Assembly (NCBI RefSeq): GCF_011745625.1
Contig: NW_027191469.1
Span: forward strand, 434,001-498,000
Source: Cladosporium halotolerans
Lineage: Eukaryota
Reading direction: 5' to 3'
DNA length: 64,000 bases
Both the position numbers and the translations under genes were made by a program. Below are positions 49,172 to 52,658 of the stretch, piece after piece. The notes beneath the pieces are model-generated. The model ran no database searches and was not told the DNA's origin. It was given only the letters and a program-made list of their open reading frames with translations. Position 1 is the stretch's first letter; the number at the start of each line of letters is the position of its first letter.

Positions 49172-50317
49172 CTCTTTGCTGTCGTCGAAGAGGGCTGGGA
49201 GCGACGACGATCTCCCTGATAAAATGTTAGTGAATCACTACCGCGCGGAAGATAACTGCACGCTTCGTAAACAGAAGAGTGAGGGCAGAGAAGAGGAAGC
49301 ACTTACGCAGGGCTGGCGAGGAGGCCGGCGCCACTGCCGGTCCTGCCTTCTCGCAGTACTCTGCCGGCACCGCAGAGGTGTGCCGGCAGGCGCTGTGGTA
49401 GGCGTAGGAGTACCGGCACATGGTACCGGCTTCCTCGCTGTCGTGTTGGGTGGAGAGAGAGGAAAGGGCAGTCAACAGTGAGCGGAAGTCACTCTTAAGC
49501 GGGCCTGCGCCAAGCCATATTCCGCATCGGGAAGGAGTCAGTGAAGGTGCTTCTGGTATGCGAGAGGCAGTGCTGCTGCCAGAGGTTCTATGATGAGGAT
49601 CTTTCTCTATCGTCACGGAGTAGTTCTCCATCCTTACGCGCTACGTGATGGGCAACAGTAGAGGCCCAGAGTTGGGCTCTCCCAAACACACTGTTGTTTG
49701 GTGAGCCGCCCGCGGCCTCGAGGCGGCGACAATACGAGGGGAATGCCCCGACGCGCCTGGACTATCTGTGGAGGCCTTTGTGAGGCTTTTCAAAGCCAGG
49801 AGGCTATCGTCGTCAGGATGCGCCGCTCGGTTTCTGATGGTCGACGGAGGCCGCCTCCTCCTCCGCCAACCCCTGAGCGCCTCAACGCCTACCGCGCTGA
49901 TCGTGTGGCATCGAGTCGCGAGAACCTTCATCAGGATGAGCCTCTACTGTTCGAGAAGGGCAAGCGAGGGGTCATACAGGTCTCCTCACCGGGTCCCTAC
50001 GCCTCCCACGACACGCCCGCGGCGCACCGAGTCACCTCGCCCTCCTCCTCCCCGCGTGCCTCGCCGCCTACCTCGCACCGCAACCGCAACCTCACGGGCA
50101 CCAACAACATGATGAGCTCTCTGAGCACGACCAGGGCAATCTCAGCATCCTCCAAGCCTCCTCGAACAATGCCTACAGCTCCCTCAACACGCCCGCGGCG
50201 CCGCAAAACCGACCGGCCGCACGACACCCCTCACAAGCAAACAACACCAACAACGCCGCCACCTCACAGCCCACACCATCACGAAATCATCACAAGAGAA
50301 CAAGACAAAGCTATCTG

Positions 50318-50640
50318 AAATGTACCACCCGTATCTGTACCGCGACCGATGAACCTCGACGATCACAACTTTTGGGGATGGCAACCTCAAGGCCAACGGC
50401 GAGCGACATCCCGAAGCACGAGGCCGCAGAACACCGCGTCGCCGGGGACCCATCACCGGAATTGCTGTTGGCCGCGTACCGCAGAACCAGACCTCGCAAA
50501 CAGCCAGCGAACGCGGTTCGTTGCCGACCCGGCGACACGCTGGTGGTGCCTGCGAGGCTGATCCCACGGAACCTTTACTCGCATGTCCCATGAGCCCTGG
50601 CGCCGGCCGTAACCGGCGAGGGCGGAACGCGAGGCCATTT
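50318..50640 (-). ncRNA. Candidate box H/ACA guide RNA (scaRNA-like) for U2 snRNA pseudouridylation
   Basis: TATATAAA at 50699-50692, closed 5' stem domain, H box ACAGCA (50468-50463), 3' hairpin with pocket AAAAG/CAGAUAC, and ACA (50323-50321) 14 nt from the pocket. Confidence 0.65.
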
Positions 50641-51302
50641 TGCGGCCGTGGTGTCAGGAGGGAGGAGAGGGTGGGCTTAGGCGACGCCTCGTTTATATAG
50701 GCGGGCGATGCGGGAGTTCCCGCGCTTGGGCTGCCTGAGGGTGGGATTTGGGCAGGGCGCTCGCGGCGTTTCATCAGCCGGCTGAGTGAGTGATTGAGAG
50801 TAAGTGGATGAACCTTGGGCGGCATGTCATCACAGGCAGTGCAGTAATCAGGAGATTGGGCTTCACCAATGCACAGAGGTATTTCAATGGGACATTTTCT
50901 TGGGGACAACGAGGTTCGGAGTCGGTAGGTATTCTTTTGTGTGGATTTGGCAGAGCTACGAGAAGATCGAACAATCGAAGTCGAGCCCCGGCGGCGCTGA
51001 GCACGCAGCCCGTAGTCATGTCCCGTCGCATCAAAACATCAGCGCCAGTCGTCTCGAAAACTCCTGGAGGCATTGATCGTCAGCCTCGAATTCGTGATCA
51101 TTCCGAATATGCGCAAAACCCCAATGGCATTGGCCTGTCCCGTCATCCTCCACACGCAACCTCCACCACCAGAGAGGGACCAGGCCATTCCAAAAACGCA
51201 GACAGCACAATTCCACATACCTCTCGCACCCCTCTCCATCTCCATCCATACCCTCCCGTTTCCTCGAACAATCTATCCCACAAAGAGCACTTTCCCAAAA
51301 AT

Positions 51303-51782
51303 CTAGTTTCCGCTCGCGTTCCAGACGTTCTTGAGGTAGCCGTCGCGCTGGGTCAGGCGGTTCATGCAGTCGTCGCTCTCGCCCATGGCGCGCACGAAGC
51401 CGCACAGCGCGTACACCTGGTTCTCGCCCGTGTAGCGGCCGTTCTCGTCGACCTTGGCGATGCTGATCTGCACGCTGCCGTGGTCCTTGGCCTTGATGAT
51501 GCGGTTGGTCGCGCTGCACTTGCGGGGGACGTACCTGTCGGCGGGAGAGGTTGGAGGTTAGCTGGGTTTGTTCTTTCGTGGTTCTTTGGGCGAATGGGCG
51601 TGGGTATTTTGGCCGGGACACTGGCGAGGCTCTTTCTCTCGAAGCGCAGACGTGCAGCGCTCGTCCTTCAATTCCTTCTCAAGAGCCTCCGCCAGGTCTG
51701 CCACGGCCGTGTGTGCGTCCCTCGGGGCTGGGATCGGGGCATGCGCTTACAGGTCGACAAGCTCGCCGCGCTCGTTCTCCAT
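51303..51782 (-). CDS. RPS21: 40S ribosomal protein S21 (eS21, 87 aa). Intron 51535-51750
   Basis: [36 protein letters not shown]...[11 protein letters not shown]. Confidence 0.96.
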
Positions 51783-52658
51783 TTTGACGGTAGTTTTGGG
51801 GGGGTTGGTGAAGAAGGTGGGTTTGGTGGGTTTGGCTTGCTCGAGGAGTGCTGATTTGTCTGTCCGTGCCGGGTTCGATCGAGGTGGTCGGCGTCGCGCA
51901 CTTCTTTTCGAACGCTCGGTGGGCTTTGCGGCGCGGAATTGGGGCCGCGCCAAGCCAAGCCTGGGAATGCGGGATTCGAGGTCACGTGCGCGGCTGACTT
52001 GAGGCCGCCAAACGTCGAGTGTTACAAGTACAATGCGTCCTAAGCACTGGATGATTGGGGCACGTCATTGATCGATATCGACGTGCGGCTTTCGAAAAGC
52101 ATTGTCGTAAACGTTTGACCGTGATATTTGAAATTCATCGAAGGCTGGACACGAAGCGTGAAGCCCAGGAAAGCTGTCACGTGCGCTGGCTCCGAGAGCT
52201 CAATGTGAGCATCGTGCTGCCACGCTGTGCACCTTGAAATGTATGCTGGGTGCTCTGGATGTCAAATGAGCCCAGAGCCTGCTCCGAATACAACTCGACT
52301 GCAGGAAATGTGCGTTTCGACATCGGCCTTGATCCCTACGAACGAGTTTTCTGCGACCATGCTGCTGAACCTCAAAAGATCCTCCTGATGGCGGACATGG
52401 ATGAATTAAATCGAAGGTGAAATTTTTGAGCATTATCTGGCCTGCCTGCGAAGACTGAAATCCGCGATATGCACACATGATACGAAAAAAAAAAAAGGCT
52501 TAGAAAGAAGTGACGGTCAGGCCCGGCTGAGACAAAAACACTGCCTCACATTGAAAAAAAATCCCCACTCCCAAAACTCCAGCGCATAATGGTTCCCCAA
52601 AGATCTCATCATTGAACCCTCCCCCCACGTCTCCTCCACATTAAACTCTTATCCGATC

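Follow-up and report, generated by a model that had tools for sequence, protein, structure and literature searches.

A box H/ACA RNA gene downstream of RPS21 in Cladosporium halotolerans, with a predicted guide pocket for U2 small nuclear RNA

Abstract

A 64,000-nt window of the Cladosporium halotolerans genome carries, on the minus strand at ~50652-50318, the gene of an RNA of the box H/ACA class that is real, expressed and conserved. The RNA (50318..50652) is very probably a guide for pseudouridines (Ψ) 44/45 of U2 small nuclear RNA (snRNA), and its identity as an H/ACA RNA is held with greater confidence still than this predicted function. Guides of this kind are already known from fission yeast and vertebrates; the locus is a well-supported further member and not a new kind. 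What seems new is a family in other, probably filamentous ascomycete fungi, with linkage to RPS21, a three-way-junction 5′ domain, and expansions.

Announcement

The window is positions 434,001 to 498,000 of contig NW_027191469.1 (NCBI RefSeq assembly GCF_011745625.1), and all positions below are numbered within it. Features of the RNA and of RPS21 lie on the minus strand. The predicted mature RNA is ~335 nt long (50318..50652), with both ends uncertain by ~15 nt. Its 5′ limit, near 50652, is set by a strand of the closing stem P1 that is kept in relatives, and its 3′ limit is placed by the rule of the class at ACA plus 3 nt. The RNA has the hairpin, hinge, hairpin and tail architecture of box H/ACA RNAs, with an extra hairpin in the hinge that is missing in several relatives. 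The TATA box, H box, middle hairpin, 3′ hairpin, pocket and ACA named in a first-pass annotation of this DNA were all recovered on the minus strand where it had placed them. Its core proposal, an H/ACA RNA whose 3′ pocket faces U44/U45 of U2 at 14–15 nt from the ACA, is supported by RNA contigs, a covarying family, the pocket itself and a known guide motif. By analogy, the locus is most likely the filamentous-fungus counterpart of pugU2-43/44 of Schizosaccharomyces pombe and, in animals, of the SCARNA8/U92 3′ hairpin.

The 3′ hairpin holds the guide element. Its lower stem pairs GCCAUCC (50376..50382) with GGGUGGU (50324..50330), and the ACA box (50321..50323) follows directly, then UUU at 50320-50318. 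Conservation in relatives stops past the ACA, which would be expected of an RNA with its end at this place. Above the lower stem lie two pocket strands. The 5′ strand, CCAAAAG (50369..50375), contains AAAAG, which is complementary to U2 CUUUU. The 3′ strand, U-ACAGAUAC (50331..50339), contains CAGAUAC, which is complementary to U2 GUAUCUG, and the A that precedes it can pair with the next U of U2. CAGAUAC occurs once in the RNA. The upper stem and apical loop occupy 50340..50368, with 9 bp (four of them G-U) between 50368-50360 and 50348-50340 and the loop UCGAGGUUCAU. The U at 50339 is an extra nucleotide at the base of this stem. Positions 50338-50329 read ACAGAUACGG, that is, ACAGAUAC and the GG of the lower stem, the sequence of guides of this type.

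The pairing was modelled on a fungal U2 motif, GUAGUAUCUGUUCUUUUC, taken from the first-pass annotation. The predicted target sequence is GUAUCUGUUCUUUU for U2 nt 37–50, or GUAUCUGUUCUUUUCA for nt 37–52. The 5′ pocket strand forms five pairs with (C)UUUU(CA) through AAAAG. Pairing of both strands leaves two U2 uridines unpaired at the top of the pocket, the first of which is U44 in Saccharomyces cerevisiae numbering (position 43 by the S. pombe and vertebrate count). The distance to the ACA is 14 nt when C 50337 is taken as the first letter (and U 50324 as the last) or 15 nt when A 50338 is, within the 14–16 nt of the class. The U2 site presumably lies next to the branch-point recognition sequence in this fungus also, given the conservation in two yeasts that the available part of PMC5473140 implies.

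The minimum-energy fold of the 328-nt RNA is −155.2 kcal/mol, against −140.1 ± 5.3 kcal/mol for shuffled sequences (z −2.87; 0/100 dinucleotide shuffles as good). The composite pattern of pocket strands and ACA distance occurs once in the 64-kb window, with 0.00 occurrences expected (0/100 shuffles). Together, these results exclude chance.

Expression was read from public sequencing runs. An index of runs returned 24 that contain part of 50250-50750. Three of them match no less than half of the words sampled, and six of the 24 are recorded as RNA. Runs aligned to 49900-51900 at 80% likeness were a DNA run of a relative (X6) and the metatranscriptomes X19, X20 and X23, from three studies. All runs were available as assembled contigs, from which true ends, strand and level are not readable. 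Each of the three metatranscriptomes has exactly one contig on the candidate RNA: 313 nt on 50331-50636 with 4 further unaligned letters, 307 nt on 50330-50633, and 282 nt on 50353-50631. All three RNA runs have a depth of 0 in 49900-50301 and in 50637-50971, and the X6 DNA contig is continuous throughout. RPS21 is present in the RNA runs as separate spliced contigs, apart from those of the candidate RNA. A shortfall of ~10–15 nt at both contig ends would be expected with random-primed libraries. Three independent RNA assemblies that hold the RNA body alone form the pattern that a discrete stable RNA of ~310–335 nt would give. Accumulation as a discrete stable RNA was thus found in 3/3 metatranscriptomes, with the sequence of a close relative.

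A protein-coding reading of the locus was rejected. The overlapping open reading frames (ORFs; 241 aa minus, 206 aa plus and 134 aa minus) have no Pfam match, and the RNA contigs span just 306 nt of a 726-nt ORF.

Homologues were sought in metagenomes with the pattern AAAAG N13-43 GG N0-1 ACAGATACGG N5 ACA, which matched at least 118 stretches. The stems, the remaining RNA and the neighbourhood were not demanded by this pattern. At least 28 of the 118 matches listed are homologues of the H/ACA hairpin. Among the matches listed, at least 6/7 pairs in both the lower and the upper stem were found in 27/28 homologues and in 0/90 others. The remaining homologue, L076, was placed in the family on the strength of its 5′ domain and RPS21. 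By this two-stem test, the other 90 listed stretches, which are recurrent bacterial-looking sequences, were set aside as chance matches. One identical 60-nt match recurs in many gut-type metagenome contigs (L002, L013, L018, L024, L031, L032 and ~20 more loci) and evidently represents a conserved bacterial gene with a chance fit to the pattern. The pattern alone is therefore unspecific, and the two-stem test is needed. The environmental contigs that carry the family are probably from filamentous ascomycetes.

The family has two groups. Group 1 comprises at least 19 loci with RNAs of ~150 nt, and group 2 at least nine loci with RNAs of ~200–285 nt. The guide hairpin was aligned for the window and 22 of the 28 homologues (23 sequences); L029, L065, L086, L093, L115 and L118 were dropped, since each has the same hairpin as a sequence retained. 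In a 14-pair structure, 91.6% of cells are paired, against 33–39% when the 3′ partners are slid by 1–3 columns. Nine of the 14 pairs are changed on both sides, 4/7 in the lower stem and 5/7 in the upper stem, and 0/500 shuffles reach the covariation score. The window's 5′ strand stands one column off in this alignment, which lowers and does not raise these figures. Covariation and conserved boxes in relatives, which the first-pass annotation had proposed to look for, were thus seen in both guide-hairpin stems and in the kept place of the H box.

The pocket also varies in an ordered way. Six of the eight aligned group 2 RNAs have the 5′ strand UGAAAAG, which gives seven contiguous pairs to CUUUUCA, two beyond what the pattern demanded. 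The group 1 strand is YGAAAAAG. The L044 pocket, ACGAAAG, keeps pairing to U by G-U; this locus was caught through an unrelated upstream AAAAG.

The 5′ domain, as judged from folds and alignments, is a conserved three-way junction of P1 and two hairpins, HP-a and HP-b. P1 pairs GGCCGC (50642..50647) with GCGGCC (50470..50475) in a 5′-domain fold of −106.1 kcal/mol, and relatives of both groups have a homologous GGCY/RGCC closure. HP-a (50578..50633) consists of CUCGC/GCGAG, GUUCC/GGGAC and a GC-rich apical stem. Its consensus fold, from the window and seven relatives, has 19 pairs, of which 10 are changed on both sides; relatives have CUUCU/AGGAG where the window has CUCGC/GCGAG. The junction UAAAGGUUC (50569..50577) is the counterpart of an invariant AAAGGC in relatives. 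HP-b (50477..50568) contains the stem CCUCGCAGG/UUUGCGAGG, with 50557-50549 paired to 50500-50492, and is several times longer than the hairpin at the same place in relatives. The order shared by the window and group 2 is P1 (GGCY/RGCC), an A-rich junction, HP-a, an AAAGGYUUC junction, HP-b and the H box. Group 1 RNAs follow this plan on a smaller scale (consensus fold of 38 pairs, 12 compensatory). Junction sequences of the 5′ domain vary between subgroups. A covariance model was built from seven group 2 5′ domains, with the window and the pattern letters left out. At E up to 10 it has a sole match in the window, full-length, at minus-strand positions 50568-50649, with 16.5 bits and E 0.031 by rough calibration.

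The first-pass annotation had closed this domain differently, with a 13-bp stem (UGGCC..GCGU.CCGC / GCGG.ACGC.GGCCA) around an internal CCUCGCA/UGCGAGG stem. The internal stem is present, inside HP-b. The outer pairing of the closure, UGGCC 50637-50633 with GGCCA 50473-50469, is possible as an alternative closure and shows one compensatory U-A to C-G change in X6 (50637, 50469). The inner eight pairs were rejected, since they compete with the CUCGC/GCGAG, GUUCC/GGGAC hairpin that covaries in relatives as HP-a; imposing the full closure gives −94.0 kcal/mol, against −98.5 for the free fold, 4.5 worse. Relatives support the GGCCGC/GCGGCC closure, which would place the 5′ end near 50652. The proposed size of ~320 nt would then become ~335 nt, and the proposal of a discrete RNA stands.

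The H box, ACAGCA(A), is at 50462..50468, one nt past the closing stem, and ACAGCA (50468-50463) has the ANANNA form of the class. Aligned relatives have A-N-A-N-N-N-A directly after P1, as AGAGUGA in group 2 and as AGAUCAA or AGAUUGA in group 1. The family H box is better written in this seven-letter form, in which the seventh A is invariant. No open pocket 14–16 nt before the H box was seen in folds of the window or its relatives; the corresponding positions are paired in HP-b and P1. The 5′ domain is for this reason read as a non-guide part that most likely serves assembly and stability of the ribonucleoprotein (RNP). The extra hinge hairpin (50390..50451, ~60 nt), which the first-pass annotation called the middle domain, has counterparts in hinge inserts of ~70–90 nt at the same place in L028, L042, L054 and L104 (L115 duplicates L104). 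The insert is missing in L036, L011, L076, L044 and all group 1 RNAs. The large HP-b and the extra hinge hairpin appear, from these comparisons, to be lineage-specific expansions.

Differences from the close relative X6 are unevenly spread. The 136 nt at 50303-50438, which hold the hinge hairpin, the guide hairpin and the ACA, show 0 differences, and the whole RNA shows nine substitutions in ~335 nt and one 3-nt insertion. The downstream 218 nt (50100-50317) have 14 substitutions and six insertions or deletions, and 50653-50808 has at least nine substitutions. All five X6 substitutions at paired sites of the minimum-energy fold keep the pair, each as a one-sided G-U/G-C/A-U change. Changes at 50557 and 50500 keep HP-b pairs, and the 3-nt insertion lies behind 50553. 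A change at 50571 (U to C) converts the junction UAAAGGUUC to the relatives' AAAGGC.

The closest known system is the S. pombe guide pugU2-43/44 (SPNCRNA.1709, GenBank BK009173). In the part of their paper available (PMC5473140), Deryusheva and Gall (2017) report that it was found through the motif ggACAGATACgg, called "highly conserved across species," with TGAAAA upstream and ACA downstream, and that the RNA was confirmed by rapid amplification of cDNA ends and northern blot. When placed in S. cerevisiae, this guide makes U2 Ψ45 and, in a pus1 deletion, also Ψ44, and an extra uridine at the base of its upper stem governs the choice of register (PMC5473140). The same part of the paper gives Pus1 as the sole activity for U2 Ψ44 in budding yeast, with no guide. 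The view of an RNA guide in a mould as a little-described system was therefore overstated, since a fission yeast guide for exactly these positions, working beside Pus1, has been known since 2017.

Like the window RNA, the S. pombe guide, so far as the source describes it, is a fungal box H/ACA RNA with its pocket in the 3′-terminal hairpin. The two have the 3′ strand ACAGAUACGG in common, with an extra U in the window relative to the ggACAGATACgg motif, and both have an A-rich 5′ strand: TGAAAA in S. pombe, CCAAAAG in the window and UGAAAAG in the window's relatives. Both allow two registers for adjacent U2 uridines, have an extra nucleotide at the upper-stem base, and have an ACA downstream. 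Each lies just downstream of a housekeeping gene, RPC10 in S. pombe and RPS21 in the window and 10 relatives. The S. pombe guide works beside Pus1, and the same is likely in the fungus studied here. The window RNA differs in its large three-way-junction 5′ domain and extra hinge hairpin, and its 5′ pocket strand lacks the UG that extends pairing. The sequence comparison covered the pocket, and function is demonstrated for the S. pombe guide and predicted here.

In animals, human SCARNA8 uses alternative pairing of its 3′ hairpin to make U2 Ψ43 and Ψ44 according to Jady et al. (PMC8763049, available part), and an oligonucleotide against the Xenopus guide is complementary to ...ACAGAUAC (PMC3884663, available part). 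Animal SCARNA8/U92/pugU2-34/44 (Drosophila scaRNA:PsiU2-35.45) thus has, in the portions of these sources at hand, a 3′ hairpin pocket with ACAGAUAC, as in the window. SCARNA8 is encoded in an intron and has a 5′ hairpin that guides U2 Ψ34, whereas the 5′ domain of the window RNA has neither a pocket nor complementarity to that site. A SCARNA8-type 5′ pocket for U2 Ψ34/35 was not found at the right H-box distance in the window or its relatives. S. cerevisiae has the same U2 region and Ψ44, made by the Pus1 protein alone. Its snR81 is a yeast H/ACA RNP that acts on U2 (Ψ42); snR81 targets U42 with its 5′ hairpin, not U44/U45 with a 3′ hairpin.

In the proposed mechanism, the RNA is made as a discrete stable species of ~335 nt, as seen in the RNA contigs of the close relative, probably from its own TATA promoter downstream of RPS21, and, as a member of its class, would assemble with Cbf5, Nhp2, Nop10 and Gar1. 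The 3′ hairpin would be the working part, with CAGAUAC paired to U2 GUAUCUG and AAAAG to U2 CUUUU. The UU left unpaired under the upper stem, 14 nt from the ACA, would present U44 for isomerisation. In an alternative register, the A before CAGAUAC would pair with U44, and U45 would become the target at 15 nt. The predicted use of two registers by one guide has experimental precedent in the S. pombe and human guides.

Several points weigh against reading the RNA as a U2 guide of this fungus. The RNA contigs carry the sequence of a close relative, 97–98% identical and not the window's strain, with 7–8 substitutions and a 3-nt insertion relative to the window. Two end 7–10 nt short of the ACA and the third at 50353, so the 3′ end lies outside the contigs. 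DNA carry-over in the contigs is conceivable, yet the flanks are uncovered. No other pocket in the family is as weak as that of the window, which has 7+5 or 8+4 pairs where group 2 has 7+7 or 8+6. Conservation of AAAAG, GG, ACAGAUACGG and the ACA distance in the homologues is by construction of the search pattern. The H box of relatives often departs from strict ANANNA (AGAGUGA, AGAUUGA, AGAUGGA), and part of the relatives conform. The target sequence rests on the motif of the first-pass annotation and on what the available part of PMC5473140 implies for two yeasts; a scan of prokaryote assemblies with an 18-mer of U2 gave 16 stretches, approximately the chance number, and none is a U2 gene by Rfam. 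Pseudouridylation of U2 by the RNA and its association with Cbf5 are predictions, and the RNA ends are likewise predicted.

The origin of the transcript bears on the promoter more than on the guide. Independent transcription from an own TATA promoter downstream of RPS21 is plausible, and it is favoured by the TATA box and by the RNA cover of 0 between RPS21 and the RNA. The candidate TATA box, TATATAAA (50692..50699), is ~40–47 nt upstream of the predicted 5′ end. It lies within 125 nt (50670-50794) that show no difference from X6 among those listed, and both adjoining stretches differ; this lack of change is consistent with a conserved promoter. A genuine H/ACA RNA could instead be cut from read-through or 3′-extended transcripts of RPS21, with its level tied to RPS21 and its guide role the same. 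We regard this origin as a serious possibility, though clearly the less likely one. A tblastn search with the final coding exon of the window's RPS21 (55 aa), made in flanks of 300–700 nt, found this exon in 10 of the 118 loci listed, with 47–87% identity. All 10 are family members, and RPS21 is upstream and on the strand of the RNA in 10/10; the upstream DNA of the other 18 family loci is too short to judge this linkage. The gap from RPS21 to the RNA is short in group 1 (~310 nt in L066, from the exon end at 297 to the RNA start at 606), and TATA-like motifs are an inconsistent feature of the DNA upstream of homologues. The S. pombe guide, too, adjoins a housekeeping gene and, according to the available part of PMC5473140, was made in S. 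cerevisiae from a promoter-less fragment with most of that gene. Against such processing stand TATATAAA, ~45 nt upstream and inside the 125 nt without a listed difference from X6, and the absence of cover between the last RPS21 exon and the RNA (50637-50971) in 3/3 RNA runs, though contigs drop rare precursors.

The RNA might also be more than a plain guide, which we consider unlikely. The apical loop (50349-50359) keeps AG in 22/23 family sequences, and adjoining loop positions vary; the loop has UGAG in 8/8 sequences of group 2, whereas the window has CGAG and group 1 mostly NAAG. The AG or UGAG resembles the consensus of the CAB box of animal scaRNAs (small RNAs specific to Cajal bodies). 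We know of no fungal counterpart of the CAB-box/scaRNA pathway, and of none described in filamentous ascomycetes. On this proposal, the loop AG would be a fungal CAB-box-like signal implying scaRNA-type sorting or assembly in filamentous ascomycetes, and the RNA would have a second, non-guide role, such as coupling ribosomal-protein expression to U2 modification. The idea of a second role draws on the conserved three-way-junction 5′ domain, its invariant purine-rich junctions (CAUGAAAG, GGAAAGGC) and the deeply conserved linkage to RPS21. Binding of the CAB box by WDR79 is described in the available part of PMC3884663. A literature search on the CAB box or TCAB1 in fungi returned, in the records available, telomerase reviews only.

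It is quite improbable that the RNA is a genuine H/ACA RNA with another physiological target, such as ribosomal RNA (rRNA) or another snRNA, and that its complementarity to U2 is incidental. The pocket was matched to the U2 motif, and many H/ACA pockets have several predicted targets (PMC5824354, available part). Against this, 12–14 nt of complementarity to one U2 site are kept in two divergent groups and are bettered by letters that the search did not force (UG, group 2), and the same guide element is tied experimentally to U2 in S. pombe, Xenopus and human, so far as the sources at hand show. It is scarcely credible that the locus acts in cis as a structured part of the 3′ region of RPS21, or that it is a chance GC-rich fold without a role in trans: the region is GC-rich, shuffles also fold strongly (mean −140 kcal/mol) and RPS21 is always adjacent, but the RNA contigs are discrete from those of RPS21 mRNA, box and pocket geometry is that of a full H/ACA RNA, four helices covary, the pattern appears in 0/100 shuffles and the overlapping ORFs match no protein family.

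The predicted U2 guide thus concerns a site, Ψ43/44, that adjoins the branch-point recognition sequence. Budding yeast uses Pus1 alone for these positions; in fission yeast and vertebrates, an H/ACA guide is at work as well. The locus and at least 28 environmental homologues indicate that the RNA-guided route is kept in fungi beyond fission yeast, probably in filamentous ascomycetes, and suggest an ancestral guide that the lineage of budding yeast has lost. Redundancy of the Pus1 and guide routes in filamentous fungi becomes testable. The family is an unannotated noncoding RNA family that Rfam models do not see, and its landmark downstream of RPS21 and defined consensus are useful for annotation of fungal genomes. 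Its worth is a solid annotation and an evolutionary link; the mechanism is unsurprising.

Rfam 15, with any SCARNA8/U92 or snR81 models it contains, had no match in the 64-kb window at gathering thresholds, which bears out the first-pass description of the locus as unannotated, and no family matched in a scan of 12 homologous loci. A permissive scan of 49900-51100 (E up to 10) gave five weak, unrelated matches: mir-7964, sn3060, MBII-202, mir-2772 and SMCR2_1. The mir-7964 match, at 49957-50007 on the minus strand, is full-length and weak (24.2 bits against a gathering threshold of 80; E 0.035 in a 1.2-kb search) and is most likely a chance GC-rich hairpin.

Published surveys were searched for the family. 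In the available part of a 2009 Neurospora crassa survey, none of the predicted H/ACA guides has an snRNA as its target (PMC2780460). Its H/ACA supplement has ACAGAUAC once, in Nc ACA13, followed by CAGC and not GG, with no ACA at the right distance, in a search that misses motifs split by line breaks. The main text of a fungal snoRNAome paper (PMC5824354) mentions U2 for snR81 only, and that of Gao et al. 2021 (PMC8216456) does not mention U2 snRNA or RPS21; the family may be in either supplement under another name. Literature searches found no paper on fungal H/ACA guides of U2, and none on filamentous fungi, by title or abstract, among those naming the S. pombe or Xenopus guides. A search by the 8-mer ACAGATAC/ACAGAUAC returned unrelated papers only.

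Group 1 loci have a further conserved block of ~60 nt (…GATGGCGTC…CATTGTCTC…ACTGGCA…GTGATCAC…), located ~100–200 nt upstream of the RNA, between the RPS21 stop codon and the RNA. It was seen in L045, L092, L004, L029, L039, L066, L075, L086, L089, L090, L091 and L101, and could belong to the RPS21 3′ untranslated region (UTR) or to the promoter of the RNA. No block resembling it was seen in the window.

The RPS21 gene of the window (51030..51855), the upstream neighbour, lies outside the RNA and was defined by ORFs and a spliced RNA contig that spans 51855-51748, 51531-51220 and then 51062 downwards. The coding intron is 51532-51747. A second intron, 51063-51219, is taken from the joint in one RNA contig of a relative and sits in the 3′ UTR, ~83 nt past the stop codon (51303-51305). 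With this intron, the RPS21 mRNA could be subject to nonsense-mediated decay.

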